From an uncultured SAR116 cluster alpha proteobacterium (GTDB lineage Bacteria; Pseudomonadota; Alphaproteobacteria; Puniceispirillales; GCA-002684695): a stretch of 64,000 nt of DNA. The notes under the pieces were generated by a model that saw only the letters and a list, made by a program, of their open reading frames with translations, did no database searches and had not been told where the DNA came from. Location: NCBI GenBank assembly GCA_902522415.1, contig CABYVI010000003.1, positions 5,092 to 69,091 of the forward strand, given 5' to 3'. Both the position numbers and the translations under genes were made by a program. Positions 1,535 through 34,250 of the stretch are shown here, in pieces (within the stretch, counting starts at the first letter, position 1; each line of letters opens with the position of its first letter).

Positions 1535-1550
1535 TGGCACAAGCATTGCT
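1535..1550 (+). promoter_or_regulatory. Sigma-54 (-24/-12) promoter upstream of flgG
   Basis: TGGCAC-AAGCA-TTGCT, exact consensus spacing, about 40 nt before the flgG ATG. Confidence 0.7.
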
Positions 1551-11934: not shown

Positions 11935-11960
11935 TAAACATTTTTTTATATTGACGTTTA
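11935..11960 (+). promoter_or_regulatory. Sigma-28-like promoter of flagellin 1 (TAAA-N14-GACGTTTA)
   Basis: TAAACATTTTT...GACGTTTA. The same TAAACATTTTT box and the same 14-nt spacing occur at 14335-14360 before flagellin 2. Resembles TAAA-N15-GCCGATAA. Confidence 0.45.
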
Positions 11961-12024: not shown

Positions 12025-13527
12025 ATGACTTCCATCAATAGTGACCAAATGTCTGCAATGGTTCTCGCGAGCCTTAATAAGTCTAATGCAACTATGCAAG
12101 AATCTATGCAAAGGTTATCTACAGGTAAAAGAATTAACCATGCAGGTGACGATGCTGCTGGTCTGTCTATCTCAGCAAAACTCAGAGCGCAGGTTGATAG
12201 TTTAAATGCAGCAATTAAAAATTCATCAGATGCATTGGCAATGGTGAGTACGATTGAAGGTGCACTCGTTGAAACTACGACTATACTCCAAAGAATGAGA
12301 CAATTATCTGTTCAGTCTTCCTCTGATACCAACACAGGAAATGACAGAACTTATCTTCAAGACGAAGTAAATCAATTAATTACTGAAATTAATAGAATTT
12401 CTACTAATACAGAATTTAACTCAACAAAACTTTTAGACGGAACTTTTACTGATAAAAATATTCAAATAGGAACAGCATCTAATCAAGTTTTAAGACTAGG
12501 TGTAAGTGCTACAGATTCTACAAAATTAGGAGCATATCAACTAGATAGTGTGGATGAGAGTATTGCTCCAGAAGATACTCATGCATCTGCTAAAACTGTT
12601 TTAAATGCTTTGTATGATGCCACAGCAGATTACGTTGTTAAAGGTACTTTTGGCACGTTTACAGCTTCAGTTGATGCTGGAGCTGATGCAAGAGATGTTG
12701 CTTCATCTTTTAATTTAATAGGAGGGAATACAGGCGTTAACGCGACAGCACTTACTCGTGCGAAAATGACCGTTTCTGCAGCAGCAACATTCAGTTTTAC
12801 ATTTGAGGGTAAAAGTACAACAACTTCTCAAATAACAGCTACTGTAACTTCTGCGACTGACTTGACTGCAATAAAAGATGCTATTAATGCAGTATCGGGT
12901 TCTACAGGTATTTCAGCTGCTTTGACATCTGATAAATCTGGGGTAGAAATTACACAAGCAGAGGGATACGATATTATTATCGGTGATGTATCAACTGGTT
13001 CAACTGACGCTAACTTACTAGTTACGGCCATGGATATGGATGGAAACCTTGATACAGGAAATACGAGAACATTAGATGGTGACGGAACAACTGGTGACTC
13101 AACAGCGATTGTTGGTACAGTTCGCCTTTCAAGTCAAAACGCTTATACGGTTTCGCCAGGTCATGCGAATAATCACTTTTCTGCTGCTACTACAGAATTG
13201 ACTGCATCACATAGTACAATTTCAGCAGTTTCTCTTACAACAAAGGAAGGTGCGACAAAAGCTATGTCAGTTATTGATGGTGCTTTGTTAATGATATCAG
13301 GTATTAGATCAAATATGGGTTCAGCTAACAATAGACTACAATCTACTATCGATAATCTAAGTAATATTGCAGTGAACGCTCAAAAATCACTTTCAACAAT
13401 AGAAGATGCTAACTTTGCTGAAGAAACTGCAAAACTTACAAAAGCACAAATACTTGCGAAAGCAGCTACATCTATGCTTGCTCAAGCGAATAAAGCAAAA
13501 GAAACAATGCTTGCATTGCTGCAATAA
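12025..13527 (+). CDS. fliC: Flagellin (500 aa)
   Basis: RLSTGKRINHAGDDAAGLSIS N-terminus, NRLQSTIDNL...AQANKAKETMLALLQ C-terminus; central flagellin-IN-like motif DLTAIKDAINAVSGSTGISAAL. Confidence 0.95.
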   Translation: MTSINSDQMSAMVLASLNKSNATMQESMQRLSTGKRINHAGDDAAGLSISAKLRAQVDSLNAAIKNSSDALAMVSTIEGALVETTTILQRMRQLSVQSSSDTNTGNDRTYLQDEVNQLITEINRISTNTEFNSTKLLDGTFTDKNIQIGTASNQVLRLGVSATDSTKLGAYQLDSVDESIAPEDTHASAKTVLNALYDATADYVVKGTFGTFTASVDAGADARDVASSFNLIGGNTGVNATALTRAKMTVSAAATFSFTFEGKSTTTSQITATVTSATDLTAIKDAINAVSGSTGISAALTSDKSGVEITQAEGYDIIIGDVSTGSTDANLLVTAMDMDGNLDTGNTRTLDGDGTTGDSTAIVGTVRLSSQNAYTVSPGHANNHFSAATTELTASHSTISAVSLTTKEGATKAMSVIDGALLMISGIRSNMGSANNRLQSTIDNLSNIAVNAQKSLSTIEDANFAEETAKLTKAQILAKAATSMLAQANKAKETMLALLQ

Positions 13528-13557: not shown

Positions 13558-14100
13558 TTATTTATCAGATGGCTTCAAAGATATAGCATCAAAAATTGTA
13601 AATTCTTCAGTAGCCAGATCTCTTAAAAAATCAATATCTTTCTCGTCGTCAATTTTCCATCCACTGGGTGACGGTTTGCTTAAATCAGATCTCAGTGAAT
13701 ACATATAAGACTTAAACATTTTTATAATGCCTCTTTCTTCGTAATTACGATCTCTTTCTCCATCAAAAATTGATCCAAGAAGCGGTTTGCGATTTCTGAT
13801 TTTACCATTATCAAAGTTAATCGTATTATATATGAAACCGTCTAGGTACTTAGTTGCATCTGAACCCGCCTCTACTTCTGCTAATATCCTAATTATATCT
13901 TCTGCAATTGATGAGATCTCAATTGGATTGACTTCGTCATATTTTTCTAAAAGAGCTTTAGAATATCTTCTTGCCACTAAGTCGATGGGTATATCCTTGA
14001 CAAGAAAATCTCTAGCTGTAAGACCAATACAAGCTGCGTAAACCCATTGAGGGCAATATACAGCCATTTTACCTCCACTAGATAATAAGTTTGATAACAT
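13558..14100 (-). CDS. Hypothetical protein (180 aa) on the opposite strand inside the flagellin array
   Basis: Intact ORF, convergent with flagellin 1; no recognisable motif. Confidence 0.4.
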   Translation of the reverse strand: MLSNLLSSGGKMAVYCPQWVYAACIGLTARDFLVKDIPIDLVARRYSKALLEKYDEVNPIEISSIAEDIIRILAEVEAGSDATKYLDGFIYNTINFDNGKIRNRKPLLGSIFDGERDRNYEERGIIKMFKSYMYSLRSDLSKPSPSGWKIDDEKDIDFLRDLATEEFTIFDAISLKPSDK

Positions 14101-14334
14101 AATAATACACTTCGTTTAAAAATTATAGAACAAAGTAACTATTGCAAATTATATGCCCAAACAGTCACTTTTTCTAAATAAAGCTGAAAAGAAAAAAACA
14201 TTTAACTCTACATTATTATTTAGGCAATTTTAAACAAAATTTTTGTGAAAAAACCCATAATAAACGACACAAAAAAAATTTGTTTAGAAATAAAAAAAAA
14301 TAATAAAATCAATAACTTTTTACTAAAAATAAAC

Positions 14335-14360
14335 TAAACATTTTTACTATATGCCGTTCA
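14335..14360 (+). promoter_or_regulatory. Sigma-28-like promoter of flagellin 2 (TAAA-N14-GCCGTTCA)
   Basis: TAAACATTTTT...GCCGTTCA, same architecture as 11935-11960. Confidence 0.5.
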
Positions 14361-14434: not shown

Positions 14435-15952
14435 ATGGTCTCAGTGAATACTAATATTGCGTCAGTTGACGCTAGAAACACATTAATGGGTAATAATGTA
14501 ACGATGGAAAAAGCATTCGAAAGACTTTCAAGTGGAAAGAGAATTAACAGCTCAAGTGATGATGCTGCGGGTCTTCAAATTGCAAATAGCCTAACATCTC
14601 AAATTAATGGTCTAAAAATGGCAGCAAAAAATGCTGGTGATGGTATTTCATTAGTAAATACAGTTGATGGAGCTTTAAGCGAAGCAACTGACATTTTACA
14701 AAGAATGCGTGAACTTGCTGTTCAATCTTCTTCAGATACAAATGCTGGACAAGATAGAGTTTTTATCCAAGAAGAAATAAACGCACTTAATACAGAACTT
14801 AATAGAATTTCATCTACCACTCAATTTAATGGGGTGAACGTTCTTGATGGCACATTCGGTGATGTATCACTTCAGGTAGGTTATGATCCAAGCCAAACTG
14901 TTAATATGAGTGTTACTTCTTCAGACTCTGCAACATTAGGTGCATACCAGGATACATCAACAGTCGAAACATTGGCCGTAGTTGATACATATGCATTAGC
15001 AACCGCAGGTTTAACGACAACTATTGCTGACGCAGGTGATTACACAGTTTCAGGTTTTTTTGGTTCTGATACAGCATATATCGCAGCTGAGGCAGGGGCA
15101 AGAGACACAGCTGCAGCTTTCAACTTAATTGCAGGTAATACTGGCATTACAGCAACTGCAGAAACCAGAGCAAGACTTACTGTAAGTGCTGCCGCAACAT
15201 TAACTTTTGACCTTTATGGCAAAAGTTCAACTAAGTCTTCAGTGACAGCAGTTATTTCTGACACATCTGATTTATCAAACTTGAAGGATGCCATTAACGC
15301 AGTCAGTGGATCCACTGGGATTTCCGCAACTCTTACATCTGATAAAGCAGGCGTCAATATAGTTAATCCAGAGGGTTATACGATATTTTTTGCTGATGTG
15401 ACAGCTGCTGGCGGTACTGATGCAGATCTACAGGTTGCAAATTTAACTGTCGACGCTGCTGGTGCTGAAACAACAGCTAACCAAGTTGCAATGAAAGGTG
15501 ATGCAGCTACTGATGATAGTACATATGTATTAGGTCAAGTTACATTGTCTTCAGATAAAGCATTTGCTTTAAGTTCTGGAAATGCTGCAAACCATTTTGC
15601 AACAGATACTTCAGTTCAAACTAGTGCGTTGAGCCAACTAGGCGATATTAACCTTAAAAATATCCATGGTGCTCAAAAAGCTTTAGCGATAATTGATAAA
15701 GCCATTAATATGATCGATACAACACGTTCAACAATGGGTGCTTTAAATAATCGTCTTGAAAGTACTATTAACAATCTGAATAATATTCAGGTAAAAACGG
15801 AAGCGTCTCTTTCCAGAGTAATGGATGCTGATTATGCAGAAGAGACAACTTCCTTATCTAAATCTCAAGTCTTAACTCAGGCAGCTACTGCTATGCTAGC
15901 GCAAGCAAACCAAGCTCCTCAAGGAGTATTAAGATTACTTCAGGCAGGATAA
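14435..15952 (+). CDS. fliC: Flagellin (505 aa; true start MVSVNTN, not the ORF-track ATG at 14351)
   Basis: AAAGGAGA RBS 7 nt before ATG 14435; RLSSGKRINSSSDDAAGLQIA ... AQANQAPQGVLRLLQ. Confidence 0.93.
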   Translation: MVSVNTNIASVDARNTLMGNNVTMEKAFERLSSGKRINSSSDDAAGLQIANSLTSQINGLKMAAKNAGDGISLVNTVDGALSEATDILQRMRELAVQSSSDTNAGQDRVFIQEEINALNTELNRISSTTQFNGVNVLDGTFGDVSLQVGYDPSQTVNMSVTSSDSATLGAYQDTSTVETLAVVDTYALATAGLTTTIADAGDYTVSGFFGSDTAYIAAEAGARDTAAAFNLIAGNTGITATAETRARLTVSAAATLTFDLYGKSSTKSSVTAVISDTSDLSNLKDAINAVSGSTGISATLTSDKAGVNIVNPEGYTIFFADVTAAGGTDADLQVANLTVDAAGAETTANQVAMKGDAATDDSTYVLGQVTLSSDKAFALSSGNAANHFATDTSVQTSALSQLGDINLKNIHGAQKALAIIDKAINMIDTTRSTMGALNNRLESTINNLNNIQVKTEASLSRVMDADYAEETTSLSKSQVLTQAATAMLAQANQAPQGVLRLLQAG

Positions 15953-16004
15953 AGGCCGCCATTGGATTTGAGAAACTAATGGTAGTTTAGTCTACCTACT
16001 ACGG

Positions 16005-16048
16005 AGCCCCAATTTAGAAATGACCGTCTAAGTTGGGGCTAAAAAAAA
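16005..16048 (+). other. 14-bp hairpin (loop AATGACCG) followed by an A8 run, in the flagellin 2/3 intergenic region
   Basis: AGCCCCAATTTAGA-AATGACCG-TCTAAGTTGGGGCT, one G.U pair; no U-run, so not a canonical terminator. Confidence 0.5.
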
Positions 16049-16084
16049 CTCAAGATGAAAGTCTTGAACAACAAGGAGATAAAT

Positions 16085-17587
16085 ATGACCTCAATAAATA
16101 GTGACTTCATGTCGCAATTGGCTTTAAGAAGCCTCGGACAATCGTCCAATACAATGACCCAAGCAATGGAGCGTTTATCAACAGGAAAAAGAATTAATTC
16201 TGCTGCTGATGATGCTGCTGGACTTGGTATTGCTACTAAGCTAAGAGCACAAGTAAATAGTTTAGAGGCTGCTGGAAGGAATGCTTCTGACGCTTTAGCA
16301 CTTATCGGTACAATTGATGGTGCATTAGAAGAGTCAGGTGAAATTCTTCAAAGAATGCGTGAATTGGCAGTTCAATCTGCATCAGATACAAATACTGGTA
16401 CAGATAGAACTTTCATTCAAGATGAAATAAATCAACTCTCTCAAGAGTTAAACAGAATTTCTACAGCAACTGAGTTTAACAATGTGAAATTGCTTGACGG
16501 TACATACACTGATAAAGCAATTCAAATTGGTACAGGTGCAAACCAAGTATTCAGATTGGGAGTTTCTGCGACAGATGCTTCAACACTAGGTGCGTATCAA
16601 TTATCTTCAACAACAGAATCTATGGATCCAGCTGCTGAAGATACTCACGCATCTGCAATTACAGCATTTGCAGCATTATTTCATGCAGACGCAGATTATA
16701 CAGTTAAGGGTAGCTTTGGAACTGCAACTGCTTCTGTAGCTGCTGGTGCTGATGCTCGTGATGTGGCTAGAACATTCAATTTGCTCTCAGGTACAACAGG
16801 TATTAATGCAACTGTCACAACCAAAGCACAGCTTAAAGTTACTGCTGCCGAGACTTTTAGTTTTACACTTCAGGGTAAAAGTTCAGATAAATCTACAGTT
16901 AATGCAACTATAACTAGTATAAGTGATTTGACAGCTTTGAAAGACGCTGTAAATGCTGTTTCAGGACAAACTGGAATTGTTGCTTCATTAACTGAAGACT
17001 TATCAGGAGTTAATCTTACACAAGAAGAAGGTTACAATATTGTTGTAGGTGACGCGACTGCAGCTTCTGGAGCGATGACAGTCCAAGAAATGAAATCAGA
17101 TGGAACTGTAACAGGTTCAGCAAGAACATTAGACGCAGATGCAACAGCTGCAGACTCTACAGCAGTTGTAGGGCAAGTCACTTTGTCTAGCCATAAGGCC
17201 TTCACTGTAACTTCTGGAAATGCTGCTAACCATTTTGCTACTGATACAGCCGCACAAAACTCAAGTTTATCTACAGTAGGCAGCCTTAGCCTTAAAACTC
17301 AAGCTGGTGCAACATCTGCTATTGCAGTTCTTGACGGAGCAATGGCTCAAATTTCTGAAATCCGAGCAGAAATGGGTGCAGCTGAAAACAGACTAGAGTC
17401 TACAGTTGATAACATCAGTAACGTTGCTGTAAATGTTCAAAGATCTCTATCTTCAGTTGAAGATGCGAATTTTGCTGCTGAGACATCCCAGTTAACTAAG
17501 TCTCAGATACTTCAGCAAGCAGCTACTTCAATGCTTGCACAAGCAAATAAAGCAAAGCAAACAATGCTTGTACTACTTCAAGGTTAA
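16085..17587 (+). CDS. fliC: Flagellin (500 aa; start MTSINSD)
   Basis: AAGGAGA RBS before ATG 16085; close paralogue of flagellin 1 throughout, including the central domain. Confidence 0.93.
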   Translation: MTSINSDFMSQLALRSLGQSSNTMTQAMERLSTGKRINSAADDAAGLGIATKLRAQVNSLEAAGRNASDALALIGTIDGALEESGEILQRMRELAVQSASDTNTGTDRTFIQDEINQLSQELNRISTATEFNNVKLLDGTYTDKAIQIGTGANQVFRLGVSATDASTLGAYQLSSTTESMDPAAEDTHASAITAFAALFHADADYTVKGSFGTATASVAAGADARDVARTFNLLSGTTGINATVTTKAQLKVTAAETFSFTLQGKSSDKSTVNATITSISDLTALKDAVNAVSGQTGIVASLTEDLSGVNLTQEEGYNIVVGDATAASGAMTVQEMKSDGTVTGSARTLDADATAADSTAVVGQVTLSSHKAFTVTSGNAANHFATDTAAQNSSLSTVGSLSLKTQAGATSAIAVLDGAMAQISEIRAEMGAAENRLESTVDNISNVAVNVQRSLSSVEDANFAAETSQLTKSQILQQAATSMLAQANKAKQTMLVLLQG

Positions 17588-17607
17588 TAATTTCAACTTT
17601 GTTTTTA

Positions 17608-17639
17608 GGGGAAGGGTTCCGCCCTTTCCCTTTTTTTTT
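17608..17639 (+). terminator. Intrinsic terminator after flagellin 3
   Basis: GGGGAAGGG-TTCCG-CCCTTTCCC followed by T9. Confidence 0.8.
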
Positions 17640-17658
17640 AAAATAATTATCTAAATTT

Positions 17659-17674
17659 TGGCATGGTATTTGCT
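17659..17674 (+). promoter_or_regulatory. Sigma-54 promoter of the 802-aa flagellin
   Basis: TGGCAT-GGTAT-TTGCT, 40 nt upstream of ATG 17714. Confidence 0.7.
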
Positions 17675-17713
17675 CATTGGACGTTGACCTCAAAATAAAA
17701 TAAAGGTGCAACA

Positions 17714-20122
17714 ATGAGTATTTTAACAAATTTAGCGGCTTTAAAATCGCTGTATCACATAAATCAGAATGAAGGTGAATTCTCTACTTCAGTAGAAAGA
17801 GTGTCTTCTGGTAAAAGAGTAAATAACGCAGGCGATGATGCTGCAGGCGCATCAATCATCAATAGAATGACATCTCAGGTACAGGGTATGAGCGTTGCAA
17901 TAAGAAATGCTGGAGATGCTATTTCTATGGCTCAAGTAGCTGAAGGCGCACTCGATGAAACAACAGAAATTTTACACAGACTGAGAGAAATAGCTGTTCA
18001 GTCTGCTAATGGAACTTACAGCGGCGCGAATAGAGTTGCACTAAACGCCGAAGTTGTTGCATTAAAAACAGAGTTATTAAGAATCGCTGAATCTACAAAA
18101 TTTAATGATGTAAAATTATTAAATGGGCAATTTCAAGATACTACATTTGCTATTGGTTATGATGAAAGTCCCGGTCATACACACTCATTAAGTATTGAGT
18201 CTGTAAAGCCAGATGACCTTGGTATGTGGACAATTACAACCGAACAGGAAAATACTGCCACTCTTAAAACAAGTGGAATGGGAAATTATGGAGAAGCTGC
18301 AAATATAGACACTGCAGCTGATCATTTATTTGAAACAGGTGATATTATTACTTATGAACAGGGACCAGCTGCTACAAGTATTCCAGTTCCAGGTCTAGTA
18401 GACGGGAAAAGTTATAAAGTGACAGTTGTTGACTCTGATTCATTTACTCTTACACATCTTGATGGATCAAAGGTTAAATATGGCGCAATCTCAAATTTTG
18501 GCACACCATCAAATGCTAAATTTCATTTACAAAGTATCTCTAATGCACCAACAGTAGGCTTGTCCAAAGGTTCTTACGCAGCCACTGGGGGAACTGATCA
18601 ATCAGCACCAGCATCAGAGGTTTTAAAAACAGAAGATGTTATGGTCCACGGACATGTTGGTTCATCTGAAGTACAGTTAAGAACTGGAATGACAGCTCTT
18701 GAAATTGCTAATGCAGTATCAAATATGGATTCACTTACCGGTGTTCGTGCTTCAGCAGTAACAAATGCTCGAATAACAGTATCACCAAGCGATAATACTG
18801 ATGATAAGCATGTGATTGCATTTGATTTGCAGGGTATGAATACAACTACACCAGTAAAAATTTCAGCAACCATAGGATTTGGTACAGGTGACGAAGTTCA
18901 TTCAGCAGACCTCTCTGATCTAAGAGATAAAATTAATGGTTTCACAGGCACAACAGGAATTTATGCAAAACTTTCATCAGACAAAAGCTATATTGATATA
19001 AAATCACCAGATGGATATGATGTTGTAATTGACAATGTGGATATGCCAACTGACACCGGCACAACGTTAACCCAAGCACTTGTTAACGCGAGTGGAGCAA
19101 ATACGAGTGATACAATTACCTCAGCATTAGCTCATGGATTTCAAGTAGGTGACATGATTAAGCTAACGGATGTCCATGGTGAAACAGGACTTGTTGGAAT
19201 AGATATGGAAACAACCTATTTTGTCAAAACTGCTCCAACATCTACAACCTTTACTTTAGCAACAGGTTCGCCAGATGGAACAACTGTTGATATTACAACA
19301 ACCAACAACGGTCATTTAGAATTTACTAAATTAGAAAAAACACTTAACCTTCAGACACTTGACAGAGACCTTAATGTAAAAGGTGGCAAAGTAAAGTTAA
19401 TGGATAAAGACATTGAATTACAAGGCTCTGGAGTTGGTGCTGTTATGACATCAGTAGCGTCAAGTGCATCAAATGCAAATATTACCTGCAGCAATGACCA
19501 TAGGTTGCAAGTTGGAGATGTTGTAAAATATACTGTAGGAAGTGTAGTTATTGCTGGATTGACAGATGGTGAATTCTACAAAGTTAAGGCTACATCATCT
19601 GATACAGTTTTTACATTAGAGAATTTAGATGGAACCGATCCTACTTATGGTGGCTCTGGAACTGGTGGCACATTTACTAAAGTAGTATCAAATGAAAATT
19701 CATTGCGACTAACAGGTGAAGTTCAATTTGAATCTGCTTATACATTTACTGTTGTTCCAGCAGTTCAGGACTCTTTATTCAGAGCAGCACCACCTGCAGC
19801 AAACTTAAATAAAGTTTCAGATCTTGATGTTTTAACAGTTGAAAAGTCACATAAATTTCTTACAGCTCTTGATGGAGCTATTAAAAGAATTGACGCAGAA
19901 CGTGGTGACCTTGGTGCGACAATGAATAGAATGCAACATACAATTGATAATTTATCAAATGTAATTGTTGGGACTAAATCAGCACGTGGCAGAATTGAAG
20001 ATGCAGACATGGCTGCAGAAACTGCTAATCTAGCAAAAAATCAAATTCTCCAGCAAGCAGCAACCGCAATGCTTGGTCAAGCAAACCAATCAATGCAAAC
20101 AATTCTTACACTTCTAAGATAA
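17714..20122 (+). CDS. fliC: Large flagellin (802 aa) with three HGF-x-x-GD-type modules in the variable region
   Basis: RVSSGKRVNNAGDDAAGASII N-terminus, DLGATMNRMQHTIDNL...GQANQSMQTILTLLR C-terminus; flagellin-IN-like motifs; modules at about 18300-18532, 19108-19330 and 19465-19686. Confidence 0.9.
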   Translation: MSILTNLAALKSLYHINQNEGEFSTSVERVSSGKRVNNAGDDAAGASIINRMTSQVQGMSVAIRNAGDAISMAQVAEGALDETTEILHRLREIAVQSANGTYSGANRVALNAEVVALKTELLRIAESTKFNDVKLLNGQFQDTTFAIGYDESPGHTHSLSIESVKPDDLGMWTITTEQENTATLKTSGMGNYGEAANIDTAADHLFETGDIITYEQGPAATSIPVPGLVDGKSYKVTVVDSDSFTLTHLDGSKVKYGAISNFGTPSNAKFHLQSISNAPTVGLSKGSYAATGGTDQSAPASEVLKTEDVMVHGHVGSSEVQLRTGMTALEIANAVSNMDSLTGVRASAVTNARITVSPSDNTDDKHVIAFDLQGMNTTTPVKISATIGFGTGDEVHSADLSDLRDKINGFTGTTGIYAKLSSDKSYIDIKSPDGYDVVIDNVDMPTDTGTTLTQALVNASGANTSDTITSALAHGFQVGDMIKLTDVHGETGLVGIDMETTYFVKTAPTSTTFTLATGSPDGTTVDITTTNNGHLEFTKLEKTLNLQTLDRDLNVKGGKVKLMDKDIELQGSGVGAVMTSVASSASNANITCSNDHRLQVGDVVKYTVGSVVIAGLTDGEFYKVKATSSDTVFTLENLDGTDPTYGGSGTGGTFTKVVSNENSLRLTGEVQFESAYTFTVVPAVQDSLFRAAPPAANLNKVSDLDVLTVEKSHKFLTALDGAIKRIDAERGDLGATMNRMQHTIDNLSNVIVGTKSARGRIEDADMAAETANLAKNQILQQAATAMLGQANQSMQTILTLLR

Positions 20123-20184
20123 CAAGTAATTTTAATTTTAGTTCAGAGCCTTTTTGAGGTTTGAATAGTATAAAGGCTAAGTGA

Positions 20185-21624
20185 ATGGAAAATAATTTTG
20201 TTGTTAATAAATTAAAAAATGACAATAACTTAATTTCTTTTCACAATCAGGCCGATATATACAATAACAAAGGTCTTGACTTTTTTCAAAATAATGATTT
20301 TGGGAATGCACTAATCTGCTTTTTCCAAGCTTTGACCCATGATAAGAATTATGCTCATGCATATTCCAATATAGGTAATATTCTCATTCAAAAAGGTGAA
20401 TTTGAAGAAGCTATTAGTATGTATCAAAAAGCAATAAATATTGATAATCAGAATAGCTTATATCATTTCAATCTCGGAATAGCTTATTCAAATGTTAATA
20501 ATAATAAAGCATCTGCTAAAGAATATAAAAGAAGCTTAAAATTAGATCCAGGTAACTTAAAAGCTTATAAATTTCTCGGAAATTGTTACATCAAATTAAA
20601 AGATTTCAAAAAAGCTATCGATACCTACCGAAAATGGTCAGAATTAGATCCCCAAAACCCAGAACCAAATTTTATTCTCGGGCAAATACATGTGAGAAAT
20701 GGACGCTTTAATTTAGGATGGAAATTATACGAATACGGATTGAAGAATAATATAAGAAAACCTTTAAGTGGCTTTTATCACGAAAAAAAGGAAATATGGG
20801 ATGGAAAACCATTTAACGGGTCACTTCTCGTTTACGGTGAACAAGGTCTTGGAGATCAAATAAACTTTGGAACTTTACTTTTTGAACTCCTAAAAATTCA
20901 AAAGAACGTTTGTGTAAAAGTAAATAAAAAATTAGTTGATTTATTTACTTGTACTTTTCCAACAATGAGAGTTTTCAGCGAGGAAGAAGAAATTCCGCAA
21001 AATGTTTACGATAAATATATTGCTCTTGGAAGCCTAAATAAATTCTTAAAAAAACATACAAATGATTATCTTAATTCAAAATTTTATCCATTAAAAGTAC
21101 ATGGCAATAGATACCTCGAGATTAATAATTTTTTTTCTAAACTAAATGGTTTTAATATAGGAATATCCTGGCACTCTTTTTCTAGTAAAACAGGCAAAGA
21201 CAGATGCTTGAAAACACATGAATTAGCTAAAATTGTTAGTGTTCAAAATATTAATTTTTTCAATATCCAGTATGGAAATGTACATAATCAGGTCAAAGAA
21301 GTTAATTTTACTTCAGGTAAAGAGATTTTGAGAGTGCCTTTCGTTGATTTGACTAATGATATTTCATCAGTAGCTGACATTATTAATAATTGTGACTTAA
21401 TAATTTCTGTAGACAATACAACAGCACATTTAGCTGCTGCTTTAGGTAAACCTGTTTGGTTATTATTGCCTTTTAATGCTGACTTTAGATGGATGGAAGA
21501 TATTACAACATCTCTCTGGTATAAAAATGTCACTTTAATTAGACAACAAAAAGAGCATGATTGGTCTAATGAAATTGAAATAATTTACAACTCACTAAAT
21601 AGCTCAAATATAGACAAAAAATAA
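20185..21624 (+). CDS. TPR-repeat protein fused to a GT9-like (heptosyltransferase-fold) glycosyltransferase domain; FlmG-like architecture, candidate flagellin glycosyltransferase
   Basis: N-terminal TPRs. C-terminus has EQGLGDQINF, GISWHS, DLIISVDNTTAHLAAALGKPVWLLLP, FRWMED..SLWY. Location next to the flagellins. Confidence 0.7.
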   Translation: MENNFVVNKLKNDNNLISFHNQADIYNNKGLDFFQNNDFGNALICFFQALTHDKNYAHAYSNIGNILIQKGEFEEAISMYQKAINIDNQNSLYHFNLGIAYSNVNNNKASAKEYKRSLKLDPGNLKAYKFLGNCYIKLKDFKKAIDTYRKWSELDPQNPEPNFILGQIHVRNGRFNLGWKLYEYGLKNNIRKPLSGFYHEKKEIWDGKPFNGSLLVYGEQGLGDQINFGTLLFELLKIQKNVCVKVNKKLVDLFTCTFPTMRVFSEEEEIPQNVYDKYIALGSLNKFLKKHTNDYLNSKFYPLKVHGNRYLEINNFFSKLNGFNIGISWHSFSSKTGKDRCLKTHELAKIVSVQNINFFNIQYGNVHNQVKEVNFTSGKEILRVPFVDLTNDISSVADIINNCDLIISVDNTTAHLAAALGKPVWLLLPFNADFRWMEDITTSLWYKNVTLIRQQKEHDWSNEIEIIYNSLNSSNIDKK

Positions 21625-21640: not shown

Positions 21641-23833
21641 ATGCACGATATTATTCTATCTCTTGATCAATTAATGACCAGTTCCATTCAAGCAAATAAA
21701 TATGGAAATAAAACTCAAGCATTAAAATATTTTAAAAAATTTGAGGATAAAAAAAATGAAGCCATAGAATTGGCTAAACAGGCTGCTAAAGATGGTAATG
21801 TCAAATTAGTTGATGAAATACTTGGATGCTTAAACAAGTTAAAAAATTATTACAAAACTAATTTACCTGTTGAAACAAAAGAAGAAAATAAACATAGATT
21901 AGAAGAAATATTTGCAATCTATAATCAAGGAAATTTTGAAAAAACCATTTCAATTATTAAGAGCCAACTAGAAAAAAATAATCAAAATCCCAATTTATAT
22001 AACTTATTAGCTTTAAGTTTTTTTAATATCGGAAAGTTAGATCACTCAATTAAATCTTTCCATGAAGGATTAAATAGTTTTCCAAATAATTTTCATTTAA
22101 ATAATAATATTAGTGTTGTTTATAAAGAAATAAAAGATTTTGATAAAGCTTTACTCTATGGTTTAAGAGCTTTTAAGATTGATCCCAATTCTGATGAAGC
22201 ATCTACCAATTTAGGTAATATTTTCTTCGAAACTGAGAACTACGATAAATCTTTATTGTACTTTAAAAAGTCAATTTCACTTAACCCACATAATTCAACC
22301 ACAATTTACAACTTCGCAGTCTGCAACTTAAAATTAAATAATTACAAACTTGCTGATGAAGCTATTAATCTAGCTTTAAGACATCAACCAGATAATCATG
22401 AATTTTTGAATGTTAAAGGACAAATTTTAAGAGAAATGGGAAGACATGATGCATCTGAAGAGTTTTTTTACAAGGCTTTGGATTTAAATTCTAACTCAGT
22501 TTTGACCTTGAATAATTTAGGAATTTTATTACAAGACAAAGTCAAATATAAAGAATCATTAGTTATATTCAAAAAAGCATTAAGTATAGAACCTAATAAT
22601 ATTAATTTTCTATGTAATATTGCCAATTCTTATTTACACCTTGGAAGTAATAAAAAAGCAATTGAATACCTTGATAAATGTTTAATAGTTAACCCAAATT
22701 TTGATAAGGCTTTTTCATTAAAAGGGATAATTTATGCTCATTTAGGACAGAAAGAAAAGTCAGTAAAGAGTTTTAAAAATGCAATTAAAATTAATAACTT
22801 TAACGCCGATGCATATAGGCAATTATCAAGACTTCAAAATTTTAAGACAGGTGACCCTCTCATAAAACAAATGGAACAAGTTTATGATAATAAGTTTTTA
22901 ATACCAGAAGAGAGAGCAATAATGTCTTTTGCATTAGGAAAAGGTTATGAGGATCTTAAAGAATATTCAAAAAGTTTTAATTTTTATAAAAATGGTAATG
23001 ATTTTTATAAAAACAAATACAGACCTCAAATCATACCAGAAGAAGTTTTTTTTAAAAATTTAGCTAAAACAAGTATTAATATTGATACGAATAAAAAGTT
23101 ACTAAAATATAATTTAAAACCTATTTTTGTTTTAGGCTTACCAAGATCTGGAACATCTCTTATTGAACAGATACTATCATCTCATTCTAAAGTAGAAGGG
23201 ATGGGAGAATTAAATTCACTTAGTAAATTTATTGAAAGTAATCTAATTACATATAAAGAAGGGTTTTCTCCAATTATTAAAAAATTTAATAAGGAAGAAC
23301 AAATAAATTTATCCAATTTTTATATGGATTCAGTTAAAACTATTGATAGCAGCGCAAAATATTTTGTTGATAAAATGCCACATAATTTTAGATGGATAAG
23401 TTATATTTTAAATTCTTACTTTTCAGCAAAAGTAATTCTGGTTGAAAGAAATCCCATGGACAATTGTTTTTCCTTATTCAAAATGCTATTTTCTTCAAGA
23501 CAACAACATTCATATTCATTTGATCTTGAAGTACTAGGAAAATATTATTTGATATATAAGGACTTAGTTAACCATTGGAAAGAAATGTATAAAAATAATA
23601 TCTATACTTGCAAATATGAAAAACTTATTTCAGATCCAGAGACTGAAATAAAAAAATTATTAGATTTCTGTAACATTAAATGGGAAGATAAAATAATGAG
23701 ATTTTATGAGACAAAAAGGTCAGTTAATACTGCTAGTCATACTCAAGTAAGACAAAAATTGTATTCTAGCTCTATTGGTTCATGGAAAAACTATGAAAAT
23801 GAATTACAGCCTCTGAAGAAAATTATTAACTAA
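21641..23833 (+). CDS. TPR-repeat protein fused to a C-terminal sulfotransferase domain
   Basis: About 10 TPRs, then a PAPS-binding 5'-PSB-like motif GLPRSGTSLIEQILSSH and a sulfotransferase-type C-terminus (VERNPMDNCFS ... YEKLISDPETEIKKLLDFC). Confidence 0.7.
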   Translation: MHDIILSLDQLMTSSIQANKYGNKTQALKYFKKFEDKKNEAIELAKQAAKDGNVKLVDEILGCLNKLKNYYKTNLPVETKEENKHRLEEIFAIYNQGNFEKTISIIKSQLEKNNQNPNLYNLLALSFFNIGKLDHSIKSFHEGLNSFPNNFHLNNNISVVYKEIKDFDKALLYGLRAFKIDPNSDEASTNLGNIFFETENYDKSLLYFKKSISLNPHNSTTIYNFAVCNLKLNNYKLADEAINLALRHQPDNHEFLNVKGQILREMGRHDASEEFFYKALDLNSNSVLTLNNLGILLQDKVKYKESLVIFKKALSIEPNNINFLCNIANSYLHLGSNKKAIEYLDKCLIVNPNFDKAFSLKGIIYAHLGQKEKSVKSFKNAIKINNFNADAYRQLSRLQNFKTGDPLIKQMEQVYDNKFLIPEERAIMSFALGKGYEDLKEYSKSFNFYKNGNDFYKNKYRPQIIPEEVFFKNLAKTSINIDTNKKLLKYNLKPIFVLGLPRSGTSLIEQILSSHSKVEGMGELNSLSKFIESNLITYKEGFSPIIKKFNKEEQINLSNFYMDSVKTIDSSAKYFVDKMPHNFRWISYILNSYFSAKVILVERNPMDNCFSLFKMLFSSRQQHSYSFDLEVLGKYYLIYKDLVNHWKEMYKNNIYTCKYEKLISDPETEIKKLLDFCNIKWEDKIMRFYETKRSVNTASHTQVRQKLYSSSIGSWKNYENELQPLKKIIN

Positions 23834-25393: not shown

Positions 25394-27631
25394 TTAGTCA
25401 CTATTCTGAGCTTCCATGAAGTTATCTAGGTATTCACCAGTAGATTTAAAGCTATTTACAACAGATTCCATTGCTCCATACTGTTCTTTATATCTATCAC
25501 GCAATTTTTCAATATCTTTATCTAATTCAATCAAGTCTTCATTGTATTCATTTAATTCTTGGTTAAGTGTGTTTGTTCTTGTAGACAATGATCCTGAGTT
25601 TGAAAGTATAGAGTTGAGATATTTTGTAATAGTTGAAACATAACTATTACCTATTGAAATATATGCATCTGAACCTGGAGCAACAACTCCAAGACTAAGT
25701 CCAAAAGCATCACCAGATAAAGTTCTAAATCCCGTTGATGTTTGCTCAATTGAAGATCCTGCAAGTGTGGCACCAGTAACATCTCCAGTCCCTGAAACAA
25801 CTGTACCGCCCTCAATTCCAAGAAAATTATTCAATCCGCTGTCAATTGAATTTATAACAATGTTACTTTCTGAACCATATTTTTTAGAAGTAATCACATA
25901 CTTTCCATTTAAGTAAGACACTGTTACACCCTCACCTTTAACAGCCAGAATGTTATCTGCATTTATTGCAGTTTCAAGTGCATTTGCTAAAGATGAAGTT
26001 GTAGAAAATGGACCGCCAGTGACGTTTATTGTATTTGATGTTACTCCATTTAATGTTATTGAAAGACTTTGGCTGCCATTTGATGGTGTATAGTTTGAAG
26101 CTGTAATATCTGTAGATGGGGAGCTACCAGTGAGTGTTGCTTGAGTTCCAATATCAAAAAAGTAATATCCAGGTTTATAATTTGAGCCTGTTAAAAATGG
26201 TGATATAAAAGATGAAGTGCTATGCAGTCTATCTGAAAAAAGTGCTGTTAAAGCTTGAGGGTCTTCTTTAAATGCTAAGTCAAACATTCTTTCATTAAGT
26301 TTAAGCCCGCCAGTTTTAGTAGTTGAAACTCCTAAATTAGCCAAATAAATAGGTTTTTCCCCGTAACCAAAAATTGGTTCAGTAGTTAATTTTCCTAACC
26401 TATCAGAGATTGCACGAATTGATGAATCACCGGCAAGAGCTCCCTTTTTTCCACCGTTCAAACCTCTTTCAGTAAGTTCACTTAGTTGACTTGCAAGATT
26501 ATTAACTTCTTCTACTAAACTCTCTAAAGCTGAGAGCACTTTATCTTTTGAAGTGGAAACTGATACAATAGCAGGAGAGGAGGTAGTATTAACTAATGAT
26601 AGGGTTGCTCCATCTATAACATCAACAATTTCATTATTGCTTCTTGAAATTGAAACACCATCAACTGTAAATGAAGCATTTTGTGCGTTTGCTGTCTCTG
26701 TGTTTGTTCTTAAAAAAGTATCATTTGAACTTCCATTACCTCCACCATATGTAATTGTATTCCCATTGCTATCATTTAAAGTAAATGACGTGGTAGATGG
26801 AACAGATGCAATTTTATACGATGTGAGAGAAGAAAGTCCATTTAAAGCTGTACCACCAGCTAAGTACTGAACAGTATCACCAACTTTTAAGCCATGTGCA
26901 GATGTTGAATTTAATACCGCTCCTGATGAACTTGATATAGCCGAAGTATTTGATGTATATGTAGTATGTTCTATAGATTTCAAACCCGAGTTTGAACCCT
27001 CAGTTATATCTATTTTAAATGCATTTGATAAACCAGTATTAGATCTTAGAACTAAAGCATAATCTGAAGTATCTTTTTTTACAATAGATGCAGTTACTCC
27101 AAGATTACCAAGATTTATTTTATCCTTAATATCAGTTAACGAATAAGCCGAGTTAGAAATACTCACTGTTTTTTGAGAATAAGACGTATCAGCTGTAAAT
27201 ACCCCATTGGACCACGTACCCTTTTGAAAAACAATATCACCATCACCAACAAGAGCACTACTTGAAGCAAAACCATCAAAAACAAGGGTCTGTGACGATG
27301 CGAGTTTAGAAACATTTATTGAGCTTGTAATCTCTTTAACAGAAGCAGGATCTGTAACGGTTAATGCAACGGAAGTACTAGTACTGGAACCCTCAAAAAC
27401 ATTTGTTCCTTCCATAGCATCAATTATTTTTGTTGATTCTGATATAGATTTTTTCAATTCAGCGATTGCAGAAATAGAAATTTCATTTTTCTCTATTTTA
27501 TCATTAATTTTTTTCTCTTTTGGAGCTCTTTCTGCTGTAATGAGGTTTTTAATTAATTCAGTCGTATTTAATCCACTTCCGACGTTTAATGCACTAAAGA
27601 CATCAGTTTCTGACATTTTGTAATTATCCAA
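25394..27631 (-). CDS. fliD: Filament cap protein FliD (HAP2), enlarged (745 aa), with one HGF-x-x-GD-type module
   Basis: N-terminus GSGLNTTELIKNLITAERAPKEKKIN, C-terminus LIELDKDIEKLRDRYKEQYGAMESVV; module SAHGLKVGDTVQYLAGGTALNGL... at about 26709-26935. Confidence 0.9.
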   Translation of the reverse strand: MDNYKMSETDVFSALNVGSGLNTTELIKNLITAERAPKEKKINDKIEKNEISISAIAELKKSISESTKIIDAMEGTNVFEGSSTSTSVALTVTDPASVKEITSSINVSKLASSQTLVFDGFASSSALVGDGDIVFQKGTWSNGVFTADTSYSQKTVSISNSAYSLTDIKDKINLGNLGVTASIVKKDTSDYALVLRSNTGLSNAFKIDITEGSNSGLKSIEHTTYTSNTSAISSSSGAVLNSTSAHGLKVGDTVQYLAGGTALNGLSSLTSYKIASVPSTTSFTLNDSNGNTITYGGGNGSSNDTFLRTNTETANAQNASFTVDGVSISRSNNEIVDVIDGATLSLVNTTSSPAIVSVSTSKDKVLSALESLVEEVNNLASQLSELTERGLNGGKKGALAGDSSIRAISDRLGKLTTEPIFGYGEKPIYLANLGVSTTKTGGLKLNERMFDLAFKEDPQALTALFSDRLHSTSSFISPFLTGSNYKPGYYFFDIGTQATLTGSSPSTDITASNYTPSNGSQSLSITLNGVTSNTINVTGGPFSTTSSLANALETAINADNILAVKGEGVTVSYLNGKYVITSKKYGSESNIVINSIDSGLNNFLGIEGGTVVSGTGDVTGATLAGSSIEQTSTGFRTLSGDAFGLSLGVVAPGSDAYISIGNSYVSTITKYLNSILSNSGSLSTRTNTLNQELNEYNEDLIELDKDIEKLRDRYKEQYGAMESVVNSFKSTGEYLDNFMEAQNSD

Positions 27632-27653: not shown

Positions 27654-27669
27654 TGCAAAAAAAATGCCA
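27654..27669 (-). promoter_or_regulatory. Sigma-54 promoter of fliD (minus strand)
   Basis: The reverse complement reads TGGCAT-TTTTT-TTGCA, about 23 nt upstream of the fliD ATG. Confidence 0.65.
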
Positions 27670-30172: not shown

Positions 30173-30188
30173 TGGCATAAATATTGCT
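30173..30188 (+). promoter_or_regulatory. Sigma-54 promoter of sRNA copy 1
   Basis: TGGCAT-AAATA-TTGCT. Confidence 0.65.
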
Positions 30189-30197
30189 CAATATAAA

Positions 30198-30275
30198 TGT
30201 TCCTAGAGGTCAGCGAAAATAGCTAGGAACAATCTCCGATGGCGGTCTTGTCTTTAGTGGCAAGGCCGCTTTTTT
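30198..30275 (+). ncRNA. Candidate small RNA, copy 1 (about 78 nt)
   Basis: GTTCCTAG-AGGTCAGCGAAAATAG-CTAGGAAC hairpin, CAATCTCCGATG linker, terminator GCGGTCTTG...CAAGGCCGC plus T6. Confidence 0.6.
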
Positions 30276-30413
30276 AACATTATATCTAACTAGATTAATT
30301 TTATAAAACAGTTATTAATTTGAAGTAATTGTCAATACAAACTTAAGCACCTATACGATATATCTAGGCAATTATATGATATTTTTAATACTATTTTTTC
30401 AAGTCTTAAACTT

Positions 30414-30429
30414 TGGCATGACTATTGCA
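30414..30429 (+). promoter_or_regulatory. Sigma-54 promoter of sRNA copy 2
   Basis: TGGCAT-GACTA-TTGCA. Confidence 0.65.
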
Positions 30430-30439
30430 AATCATAAGT

Positions 30440-30524
30440 AGTTCCTAGAGGTCAGCGAAATAGCTAGGAACAATCTCCGATGGCGGTCTTGTTGATTTAA
30501 CTCTTCAAGACCGCTAATTTTTTT
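30440..30524 (+). ncRNA. Candidate small RNA, copy 2 (about 85 nt)
   Basis: Same hairpin (loop AGGTCAGCGAAATAG), same linker, terminator GCGGTCTTG...CAAGACCGC plus T7. Confidence 0.6.
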
Positions 30525-30536
30525 AATTTCATACTT

Positions 30537-30552
30537 TGGCATGACTATTGCA
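30537..30552 (+). promoter_or_regulatory. Sigma-54 promoter of sRNA copy 3
   Basis: TGGCAT-GACTA-TTGCA, identical to copy 2. Confidence 0.65.
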
Positions 30553-30562
30553 AATTATTAGT

Positions 30563-30648: not shown

Positions 30649-30658
30649 GAGTTTAATT

Positions 30659-31786: not shown

Positions 31787-32908
31787 TTAATGATTAATTG
31801 AGAGTTTTTTCATTTTCTCAATTAATGTTGTTCTGTTTAGCCTTAAGCATTCAGATGCTTTTGTGATATGACCACTATTTTTTTCAATTGCAGCTTTGAT
31901 TAAAACTTCCTCTACATCTATTAAGTGCCTTCTTATATCAATGCTGTCATAGTATAAAAACCAATCACTATAGTGAGAAGGGTCAGGTAATGGAGGACTG
32001 TTTTCATTTTCTGCATCTTCCTCAATTTCAAAAGATATATTTGAAGTTGCTTCCCACATAGCATCTTTTTCAATTTGAGGATCAGGCACTTTAAGCCTGA
32101 GAAGATTTTCTAATACATTTTTACCATTAATTTTTTTATTAGGAAATAAAACTGCAGCCCTTTCAACAACATTTCTAAGTTCTCTGATGTTTCCAGGCCA
32201 ATTATATCTTCCCAATTCTCTAAAAGCAGTATCATCAAATTCAGGAATATTATCCCCCTGTTTTCTTAATTCTGACAACATAAATTCAACAATTACAGGT
32301 ATATCAACAATCCTTTCTGCAAGACTAGGCACAATGATTGGAAAAACATTTATTCTAAAAAATAAATCTGCTCTAAATTTTCCTTCATCTACATATTTAT
32401 CAATATTCTGATGTGTGGCACAAATTAACCTTAAATCAATTTTAATTTCTTTATCACCACCCACTCTTTGGATAGTTTTGTTTTCAAGTGCCCTTAGTAA
32501 TTTACTCTGCAGTGAAAGAGGCATGTCTCCAATTTCATCTAAAAATAATGTTCCACCACTTGATTGCTCAAAGCGCCCTGCCCGCGATTTATCAGCGCCT
32601 GTGAAGGCACCTTTCTCATGTCCAAATAACTCACTTTCAAGAAGTTCTGTTGGAATTGCTGCGCAATTTACTGAAATCAATGGTCCTTTTTTTCCAGACG
32701 CTTCGTGAATACCTTTTGCAACAAGTTCTTTGCCTGACCCAGTTGGACCTAAAATTAATGCTGAACTTCCTGTTGGCGCCACTACAGACATCAGACGTTT
32801 CAACTCACTTGCAGGTGCTGAAATTCCTGAGATAAGCTTGTTTATTGATAATGGTATTAAATTTGGATCTTTATTTAGCTTTGTCATAAATTTGTCATTA
32901 CTTAACAA
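31787..32908 (-). CDS. Sigma-54 enhancer-binding protein: AAA+ domain plus C-terminal Fis-type HTH, no receiver domain (FleQ/FlrA-like)
   Basis: Walker A GPTGSGKE, ESELFGHEKGAFTGA (GAFTGA loop), GGTLFLDEIGDM, WPGNIRELRNVVER; C-terminal HITKASECLRLNRTTLIEKMKKL; only about 45 aa precede the AAA+ domain. Confidence 0.85.
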   Translation of the reverse strand: MLSNDKFMTKLNKDPNLIPLSINKLISGISAPASELKRLMSVVAPTGSSALILGPTGSGKELVAKGIHEASGKKGPLISVNCAAIPTELLESELFGHEKGAFTGADKSRAGRFEQSSGGTLFLDEIGDMPLSLQSKLLRALENKTIQRVGGDKEIKIDLRLICATHQNIDKYVDEGKFRADLFFRINVFPIIVPSLAERIVDIPVIVEFMLSELRKQGDNIPEFDDTAFRELGRYNWPGNIRELRNVVERAAVLFPNKKINGKNVLENLLRLKVPDPQIEKDAMWEATSNISFEIEEDAENENSPPLPDPSHYSDWFLYYDSIDIRRHLIDVEEVLIKAAIEKNSGHITKASECLRLNRTTLIEKMKKLSINH

Positions 32909-33092: not shown

Positions 33093-34250
33093 ATGAAAAA
33101 TGTAGGTATCATTAAAGAGAATTTTGATCTTGCACATAAATTGACTAAATTACTTAATACAAAACAAATGAATATAGTTGAGCTTCCACTATATAATTCT
33201 GTTCAGATTAATAGCTTAGTTCTAAGTGCTGCAAAAGAGATTGAGATGGGCGGCCAGCAAGCTGTAATCGAATTTTCAAGAAATACCAAAGCTGATCAGA
33301 TAATGATAATCGAAGAAAAAGCAAAAACTTACAAAACTGAAGTGAATTTCGGTGGAAAATTAATCAAAATTAGCATCCCTGAAAAAGAAGATACTCATGA
33401 CTGGATATTGGAGATATCCGCACAAATGCTCGCTACTAAAGAGTTAGTGATGGCAAACGATATTAGAAGTAGAGAACTTTTAGCTTTAGCAAAAAAGGTT
33501 GCAACTACAAATGTTACTGTTTTTATCAATGGTCCTACAGGAACTGGTAAAGAAGTAATTTCAAATTTCATTCATAATAATAGTTCAAGATCAGAATTTC
33601 CTTTTGTGGCAGTCAACTGTGCAGCTATTCCAGAGAACATGCTTGAAGCAATTTTATTTGGACATGAAAAGGGTTCATTTACTGGAGCCTCTCAGGCCAA
33701 TAAAGGTATTTTCCGAGCTGCAGATGGAGGCACTCTTTTGTTAGATGAAATTTCTGAAATGCCACTTTCACTTCAGTCAAAGCTTTTAAGAGTACTACAG
33801 GAGAGAAAAGTAACACCAATTGGTGGATCAAAAGATGTTCAAGTAGATGTACGAGTTGTTGCGACAACTAATCGAGATATGCTTTCAGAAATAAAAAAAG
33901 GAACATTCAGAGAAGACTTATACTATAGGCTTAATGTTTTTCCTCTAAGAACTTTAGCACTTAAAGAGAGACCAGATGATATATTACCTATAAGTGCTGC
34001 ATTACTTAAAAAACATACAAGTGAAGACAAATCTCTACCACTTTTAACAGCTAAAGCATTAGATGTTTTGAAAAATCATTCATGGCCTGGGAATGTAAGA
34101 GAATTAGAGAATGTATTACAAAGAGCAATGGTAATTTGTAATGAAGATATAATAACTGAAAATGACATAATGATTGATAATTCGGCAATTAGTACAGAGA
34201 GGAACCTTGCTGATAGAATTCAATCTGGAAATATGGTTGCTACTGCATAA
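33093..34250 (+). CDS. Sigma-54 enhancer-binding protein with an N-terminal ~130-aa domain and AAA+ core but no DNA-binding HTH (FleT-like)
   Basis: GPTGTGKE, FGHEKGSFTGA, GGTLLLDEISEM, WPGNVRELENVLQR; the protein ends about 45 aa after the AAA+ core with no HTH; first gene before fliE, as fleT is in R. sphaeroides fla1. Confidence 0.8.
   Translation: MKNVGIIKENFDLAHKLTKLLNTKQMNIVELPLYNSVQINSLVLSAAKEIEMGGQQAVIEFSRNTKADQIMIIEEKAKTYKTEVNFGGKLIKISIPEKEDTHDWILEISAQMLATKELVMANDIRSRELLALAKKVATTNVTVFINGPTGTGKEVISNFIHNNSSRSEFPFVAVNCAAIPENMLEAILFGHEKGSFTGASQANKGIFRAADGGTLLLDEISEMPLSLQSKLLRVLQERKVTPIGGSKDVQVDVRVVATTNRDMLSEIKKGTFREDLYYRLNVFPLRTLALKERPDDILPISAALLKKHTSEDKSLPLLTAKALDVLKNHSWPGNVRELENVLQRAMVICNEDIITENDIMIDNSAISTERNLADRIQSGNMVATA

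Follow-up and report, generated by a model that had tools for sequence, protein, structure and literature searches.

Two flagellin lineages with predicted sigma-54 and sigma-28-like promoters in a SAR116 flagellar cluster and across its order

The split of flagellins between sigma-54 and sigma-28 control has already been described in Vibrio, Shewanella, Campylobacter, and Helicobacter, as follows. Helicobacter pylori and Campylobacter have a sigma-54 flagellin, FlaB, and a sigma-28 flagellin, FlaA, and Vibrio cholerae combines a sigma-54 FlaA with the sigma-28 flagellins FlaB-E. FlaA of Shewanella putrefaciens, which is FliA-independent and RpoN/FlrA-dependent, forms the proximal segment of the filament, and the FliA-dependent FlaB forms the remainder (PMC6299084). 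Work cited in the same paper has the two H. pylori flagellins spatially arranged along the filament. Here we describe a comparable arrangement in a member of SAR116, which is among the most abundant bacterial groups of the surface ocean. The DNA analyzed, called the window below, is a stretch of 64,000 nucleotides (nt) from assembly GCA_902522415.1 (contig CABYVI010000003.1, our C3, forward-strand positions 5,092 to 69,091), part of a 1.2-Mb genome with a completeness of 61%. The window holds four flagellin genes, fla1 to fla4. The last of these, fla4, lies behind a predicted sigma-54 promoter, and fla1 and fla2 lie behind sigma-28-like boxes; the same split runs through most of the order and coincides with a division of the flagellin tree. 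No paper on SAR116 flagellar or flagellin regulation was found in the literature searched.

Two further systems are close to this locus. The Fla1 system of the alphaproteobacterium Cereibacter (Rhodobacter) sphaeroides has the activators FleQ and FleT, sigma-54 middle genes, a FliA/FlgM checkpoint, and an oversized FlgK (PMC7277832). The SAR116 bacterium, also an alphaproteobacterium, likewise has a flagellar cluster of gammaproteobacterial type, with a pair of predicted activators, one with and one without a helix-turn-helix (HTH) domain, matching FleQ and FleT (PMC7277832). The two differ in that fliC and fliD of C. sphaeroides are sigma-28 class IV genes (PMC7277832), whereas fliD and one flagellin gene have predicted sigma-54 promoters in SAR116. 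Giant flagellins, defined as longer than 1000 amino acid residues (aa), are described in Bermanella and Oleibacter (PMC6248924). The resemblance is that of a marine bacterium with a flagellin outer region enlarged between conserved D0/D1 helices. Unlike the giants, the fla4 protein, with 802 aa, is below the 1000-aa limit, and the SAR116 flagellins of 1000-1769 aa carry sigma-28-like boxes.

The fla4 open reading frame (ORF) is intact. Its product matches, in both cases over the full length of the profile, Flagellin_N (PF00669, expectation value (E) 1.5e-38, profile positions 1-137 of 139) and Flagellin_C (PF00700, E 1.8e-24, profile positions 1-86 of 86). An AlphaFold2 model of the monomer, built with 44 homologues, has a mean predicted local distance difference test (pLDDT) score of 73.6; the all-beta outer region, aa 170-690, scores 80-90, and pLDDT is low for the D0/D1 helices. 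Foldseek ranks the FliC filament of P. aeruginosa, 8sug, first (E 3e-13), and 9ygu, 6x80, and 8erm (PAO1 D2/D3 domains) match as well. Judged by its Pfam N- and C-terminal domains and by Foldseek, fla4 is predicted to be a true filament flagellin that polymerizes into the filament. Homologues of 800-819 aa have 81-94% identity to it, and many of about 705-715 aa have about 50%.

The promoter evidence for fla4 is as follows. The box has its -24 GG at 17660-61 and its -12 GC at 17672-73, which is the GG-N10-GC geometry of the sigma-54 motif TGGCAC-N5-TTGC, and it lies 39 nt from the ATG. An earlier reading of the window from its letters alone, called the sequence-only reading below, had placed an 802-aa flagellin behind a clean TGGCAT-N5-TTGCT promoter, and both the gene and the box are borne out. 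Upstream of the box stands an intrinsic terminator, which is kept in L001, L002, G018, and G022. This strong predicted terminator ends the fla3 transcript and separates fla4 from the upstream flagellin transcript, so that fla4 is, by sequence, an independent transcription unit. Transcription of fla4 is predicted to start near 17685. The 5′ end of the leader, GACCTCAA, is conserved within the genus, and a Shine-Dalgarno sequence, AAAGGTG, is found at 17703-17709.

The window has exact matches to TAAACATTTTT-N7-GNCGTT at two places only, the sigma-28-like boxes of fla1 and fla2. The sequence-only reading was right about their presence; it had given the spacer as a single nucleotide, and the spacer is seven. 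The leader motif that it reported for both genes, GGTCAGCG, is indeed in the leaders of fla1 (at 11974) and fla2 (at 14378), and occurs five times in the window, against 0.15 expected. With start codons corrected, fla2 begins at 14435 and fla3 at 16085. Neither a sigma-54 nor a sigma-28-like box is found upstream of fla3. Because of this absence, and because the 132-nt spacer behind fla2 contains no terminator, fla3 is probably transcribed together with fla2.

To see the split across the order, the fla4 protein was used as the query against 121 genomes, 75 of which gave flagellin matches. Loci L005-L074 were retrieved, and the flagellin N-termini in each were located by tblastn. The resulting set, drawn from four sampled families of the order (f1, f2, f3, and f4), comprises 78 distinct flagellins, and for 76 of these the retrieved DNA extends 100 nt or more upstream. 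A box that matches TGG[CT]A[CT]-N5-TTGC exactly, starting 43-67 nt before the ATG, precedes 30 of the 76 genes. They are all the fla4-type genes whose upstream DNA is long enough (30/30), they come from families f1, f3, and f4, and the sequence flanking their boxes is not conserved. The motif TAA[ACT][ACT]-N12-14-GNCG[TA][TA] is found upstream of 38 other flagellin genes and, in a looser form, of two more, about 40 in total; many genes first scored as boxless have a variant -35, namely CTAATC, CTAATA, or CTAACA. None of the 76 has both kinds of box. The six with neither are three fla3 orthologues directly behind fla2 and three genes from G068, a genome with 5% contamination. The same arrangement is seen in L004, a more distant metagenomic relative (54% identity), where TGGCACGCGATTTGCA precedes a flagellin of 704 aa and TAAAC-N13-GTCGTT precedes one of 573 aa.

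A maximum-likelihood tree was made from the N-terminal 175 aa of 29 sigma-54 genes and 43 others. A single branch splits the 29 from the 43, so that the promoter label changes once on the tree; none of 500 label shuffles did as well. The same cluster was obtained in an earlier tree rooted with FlgL (support 87/88). Over D0/D1, fla4 has 37-41% identity to fla1-3, which are 50-63% identical among themselves over their full length. In the sampled genomes, the genes of the sigma-54 class number one per genome wherever the class is found; those of the other class, from one to at least five. Identity between orthologues, compared by region, gave no clear rate difference between the classes. The sequence-only reading had proposed two flagellin classes under different sigma factors for this one locus, and the proposal extends to three of the four sampled families of the order. 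By these sequence comparisons, the split into two promoter classes is not due to chance, and the classes are separate paralogue lineages.

The flagellar cluster of the window, whose gene order is of the gammaproteobacterial type, supplies the context for fla4. It begins with flgE′, flgF, flgG, flgH, flgI, and flgJ, followed by a 2026-aa flgK and by flgL. The four flagellin genes come next, then TPR-enzyme genes, fliD, and fliS, then two genes for sigma-54 activators, and finally fliF through flhB. With at most one mismatch allowed, the window contains 21 matches to TGGCAY-N5-TTGCW where 4.96 would be expected; none of 100 shuffles reached that count. Eight of the matches are exact. Seven of these are directly upstream of a flagellar gene or a small-RNA unit, in the right orientation, and the eighth (30920), 165 nt upstream of fliS, falls inside an ORF of the minus strand. 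Strict matches in the whole genome number 11: the eight in the window, two on C36, the contig that carries fliA, and one on C18. The boxes of the window precede the flgG operon, fliK, fliD, fla4, three small-RNA units, and probably fliS. No further box was found before flgK or flgL, and the flgG operon may extend through flgH, flgI, flgJ, flgK, and flgL. Because sigma-54 boxes precede the flgG operon, fliD, and fla4, the hook, junction, and cap genes are predicted to share a promoter class with fla4. FliA is encoded in the genome (G000:C36:694-1338, 214 bits against a cut-off of 189.6).

We propose, as a probable reading held with some reserve, that Fla4 is a sigma-54 middle-class filament flagellin, made first and hook-proximal, and that Fla1-3, made later through FliA, build the bulk of the filament. 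Sigma-54 polymerase, with the FleQ-like and FleT-like activators of the same cluster, would transcribe fla4. The gene would thereby join the middle class, alongside the rod/hook operon (to which flgK and flgL probably belong), fliK, fliD, and probably fliS. FliA (sigma-28) would transcribe fla1 and fla2, with fla3 probably carried on the fla2 transcript; being FliA-transcribed, these genes would be late, expressed only once the hook-basal body is complete and FlgM has been exported. By the time the export gate turns to late substrates, a pool of Fla4 would be ready. This protein would polymerize first and, because it is exported first, would adjoin the FlgK/FlgL junction, after which most of the filament would be formed from the sigma-28 flagellins. 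We infer the acting sigma factor and activators, the order of expression, and the proximal position from sequence, and the step from early synthesis to a hook-proximal segment is a reasonable one by analogy with Shewanella FlaA and FlaB. The sequence-only reading had likened the locus to the early sigma-54 flagellin pattern, a comparison that is apt for Shewanella, Helicobacter, and Campylobacter (PMC6299084). Like Shewanella, the SAR116 bacterium would have one FliA-independent flagellin and one or more FliA-dependent ones, with their own promoters, in a polar cluster of gammaproteobacterial type; here the parallel is drawn from predicted promoters.

Several points weigh against this proposal. 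The sigma-54 flagellin FlaA of V. cholerae is the essential core flagellin, not a minor proximal one; therefore sigma-54 control alone fixes neither the position of a flagellin nor its abundance. The enterobacterial sigma-28 consensus is TAAA-N15-GCCGATAA. Measured against it, the window boxes, TAAAC-N13-G(N)CGTT(A/T), match 4/4 at the -35 and about 6/8 at the -10, with a spacer of 14 rather than 15. The branch that separates the two classes has a support of 80/81, which is moderate only. All the flagellins sampled from family f2 fall in the non-sigma-54 class, and this family appears to lack the sigma-54 class. Neither rpoN nor flgM was found in the 61%-complete genome; RpoN is present in six of eight genomes of the genus, and FlgM in five of the eight.

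The V. cholerae example leads directly to the first alternative, in which Fla4 is the main structural subunit of the filament or an essential one, the sigma-28 flagellins play an accessory or modulating part, and sigma-54 control reflects importance rather than position. The steady single copy of the sigma-54 gene agrees with this, set beside a sigma-28 class whose copy number and sizes vary widely, as does the great number of full-length fla4 homologues (about 50% identity) in marine metagenomes. We nonetheless think it unlikely: the Shine-Dalgarno sequence of fla2 and fla3, AAGGAG, is stronger than the AGGTG of fla4, flagellins exist in family f2 without a sigma-54 class, and Shewanella FliA-independent promoters of this kind give short filaments only (PMC6299084).

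Control might instead be conditional rather than temporal, with sigma-54 activators that sense the environment and a filament of varying composition, thick and rich in Fla4 or thin and made of Fla1-3. Signal integration is common among sigma-54 activators, fla4 is possibly co-transcribed with the TPR-glycosyltransferase and sulfotransferase genes behind it, and the small RNAs and leader hairpins of the locus suggest extra regulatory layers. This alternative is the less likely of the two, since sigma-54 boxes also precede the obligatory structural genes (the flgG operon, fliK, and fliD) and the only nearby activators are the FleQ/FleT-like pair that would drive the entire hierarchy. Finally, that both kinds of motif are chance or non-functional, with the four flagellin genes served by other promoters or by read-through, is very improbable: AT-rich intergenic DNA does give many sigma-70-like matches (39 against 34.7 expected), but an exact box in 30 of 30 orthologues, in three families, at a fixed distance from the ATG and between diverged flanks, nearly excludes it, and the strong terminator upstream of the fla4 box and motif counts far above those of shuffles also stand against it.

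The sequence-only reading had seen three modules in fla4, at 18300-18532, 19108-19330, and 19465-19686, and these are real: a module hidden Markov model (HMM) finds all three within those limits (E 1e-23 to 1e-28). Module 2 has Foldseek matches to the Uba1/Uba6 FCCH barrel, and in the Foldseek list of the whole model the ubiquitin E1 FCCH beta-barrel, corresponding to the modules, comes after the filament flagellins. Module 3 is 44% identical to FlgK 1556-1621 (E 2e-11). It appears to be missing from the orthologues of about 705-715 aa, since these cover about 70% of the query and their consensus has two module motifs. The same reading held the early flagellin to be structurally very different, which goes too far: a segment of fla4, aa 295-459, shares homology with the outer domain of fla1, aa 184-335 (BLASTP 35% identity, E 8e-17).

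It also took large size and modules as the marks of the early flagellin, and this part is not supported in that form. The module HMM finds five copies in FlgK, one in FliD, and three in fla4, and also one module each in fla1-, fla2-, and fla3-type (non-sigma-54) flagellins of 533-603 aa from G010 and G014; it has no match in the flagellins of other families, sigma-54 ones included. The candidate rule that modules define the sigma-54 class was rejected on the FliD and the G010/G014 matches. Complete sigma-54 flagellins across the order are 588-806 aa long, with one incomplete gene of the class within a 1330-aa open frame in G043, and flagellins of the other class are 352-1769 aa long. The candidate rule that the sigma-54 flagellin is the large one was likewise rejected for the order, as the sigma-28 class is larger in other families (up to 1769 against 588-806 aa). 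Because modules occur in sigma-28-class flagellins and this class is larger in other families, it is promoter and D0/D1 lineage that define the predicted classes; size and beta-barrel modules do not. The flagellins with the extra module (L047, L048, and L049 of G010, and L002:6-1811 of G014) are fla1, fla2, and fla3 orthologues that carry it near aa 360-420. A module has been gained in these sister-species orthologues, and therefore the module moves between flagellar axial proteins within the genus. Other SAR116 families (L050, at G004:C12:52914-58724, and L055, L042, and L052-L054) have flagellins of 1003-1769 aa, preceded by sigma-28-like boxes. Giant flagellins are frequent in the order, with no tie to the sigma-54 class.

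It is tempting to go further and to imagine a two-part filament in this SAR116 genus. Its short, thick base would be of Fla4, bearing modules that are phage-like beta-barrels and modified by the possibly co-transcribed TPR-glycosyltransferase and TPR-sulfotransferase; the decorated surface of this base would pass without a break into the giant FlgK, itself module-bearing. Its thinner distal part would be of the 500-aa sigma-28 flagellins, and the switch would be tuned by small RNAs and leader hairpins. We regard this whole picture as doubtful.

The comparison with described systems brings out what sets the SAR116 classes apart. FlaA and FlaB of Shewanella are similar in size and closely related; the SAR116 classes are old paralogues, at 37-41% D0/D1 identity against 50-63% within the sigma-28 class, and the sigma-54 flagellin of this genus is 300 aa larger. 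Helicobacter, Campylobacter, and V. cholerae share with SAR116 the combination of one sigma-54 flagellin and one or several sigma-28 flagellins. Since in each of those lineages the paralogues resemble one another closely, and the lineages belong to other phyla or classes, the split probably arose independently.

No new principle is involved, as the sigma-54/sigma-28 split and oversized flagellins (PMC6248924) are both described. What is new is the scheme, as predicted here, in an abundant alphaproteobacterial order in the form of two old paralogue lineages, together with the shift of fliD to the sigma-54 class. Three of the four sampled families retain the sigma-54 flagellin lineage beside a variable sigma-28 set. 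The early/late flagellin scheme of gamma- and epsilonproteobacteria would thereby reach an alphaproteobacterial lineage whose cluster is of the Fla1 type. The promoter consensus sequences of the SAR116 flagellins can be used for annotating such genomes. For cultured relatives, the prediction is a filament base that differs from the rest in composition and, in the genus of fla4, in thickness too. The coordinates of the features are collected in Table 1.

Table 1. Predicted genes, promoters, and protein segments of the window; segments of fla4 are given in nucleotide positions.
Feature	Position	Strand	Remarks
Sigma-54 promoter ahead of flgG	1535..1550	+	
Sigma-28-like promoter of fla1	11935..11959	+	TAAAC-N13-GACGTT (TAAACATTTTTTTATATTGACGTT)
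fla1	12025..13527	+	500 aa; sigma-28 class; without modules
Sigma-28-like promoter of fla2	14335..14359	+	TAAAC-N13-GCCGTT (TAAACATTTTTACTATATGCCGTT)
fla2	14435..15952	+	505 aa; sigma-28 class
fla3	16085..17587	+	500 aa; sigma-28-class lineage; no promoter box of its own
Intrinsic terminator after fla3	17607..17640	+	GC-rich stem of 11 base pairs (17607-17631), then T9
Sigma-54 promoter of fla4	17659..17674	+	TGGCATGGTATTTGCT, TGGCAT-GGTAT-TTGCT
fla4 leader (predicted)	17685..17713	+	About 29 nt; from promoter geometry
fla4	17714..20122	+	Sigma-54-class flagellin, 802 aa; Pfam, AlphaFold2 model, Foldseek
Beta-barrel module 1 of fla4	18311..18496	+	aa 200-261; module HMM E 4.7e-25; matches FlgK
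Core outer flagellin domain of fla4	18596..19090	+	aa 295-459; contains Flagellin_IN motif (Pfam PF07196)
Beta-barrel module 2 of fla4	19121..19309	+	aa 470-532; module HMM E 8.4e-23; weak Pfam E1_FCCH match
Beta-barrel module 3 of fla4	19487..19663	+	aa 592-650; module HMM E 2.4e-28
TPR-GT9-like gene	20185-21624	+	
TPR-sulfotransferase gene	21641-23833	+	
fliD	25394-27616	-	740 aa from ATG at 27616
Sigma-54 promoter of fliD	27654..27669	-	TGGCATTTTTTTTGCA; conserved in L004
Sigma-54 activator (enhancer-binding protein), FleQ-like	31787..32908	-	HTH_8 domain
Sigma-54 activator (enhancer-binding protein), FleT-like	33093..34250	+	Without DNA-binding domain

In the interval between fla4 and the TPR-GT9-like gene, 20123-20184, neither a promoter box (sigma-54 or sigma-28) nor a canonical terminator is present, and the TPR-GT9-like and TPR-sulfotransferase genes may for this reason be co-transcribed with fla4. 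The order of fla4 and the TPR genes is retained in L001 and G018.

Three sigma-54 small RNAs are located at 30173-30650, with the loop GAGGTCAGCG. Rfam at gathering thresholds gave no match within the window. In the fla4 leader region, 17681-17697, the sequence CGTTGACCTC (17681-17690) is complementary to this loop over 10 base pairs in the window. Pairing of the two was rejected as weak: only a 6-base-pair core, GACCTC, is kept in G018 and G022, the small RNAs of G022 (loop GAGGTCAGCAAAA) show no compensating change, and the first four or five of the ten bases are upstream of the predicted transcription start.

As for the sigma-54 boxes outside the window, one of the two on C36 (2626 on the minus strand and 4415 on the plus strand) is before a rod/hook-type gene and the other before an uncharacterized 266-aa ORF with a hydrophobic N-terminus. 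The box on C18 (3128, plus strand) is upstream of a 66-aa ORF.

The spacer between fla2 and fla3 (15953-16084) is conserved and structured, with no promoter box and no plus-strand terminator. Its hairpins are GGCCGCCATTGG... and GAGCCCCAA...TTGGGGCT, the latter followed by an A-run, and they are also present in L001 and G010. The spacer may be an RNA processing or stability element inside the fla2-fla3 transcript.

Between fla1 and fla2, a 180-aa ORF (13558-14100, minus strand) is divergent from fla2. Neither it nor the ORF at 30659-31039 (minus strand) was given a function by Pfam, even at relaxed thresholds. The 180-aa ORF has its own sigma-28-like box at 14262-14286 (minus strand), TAAACAAATTTTTTTTGTGTCGTTT, which is one of just four strict matches to the motif in the whole genome. 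Its counterpart in L001 is a minus-strand ORF of 191 aa in the same position (7031-7606).

Some flagellin promoters of families f2 and f4 (L032, L060, L061, L064, and L071) have CTAATCA as their -35, and the same promoters have a conserved CTGAC motif after the GNCGTTA -10. Possibly this form is a FliA promoter variant specific to the lineage.

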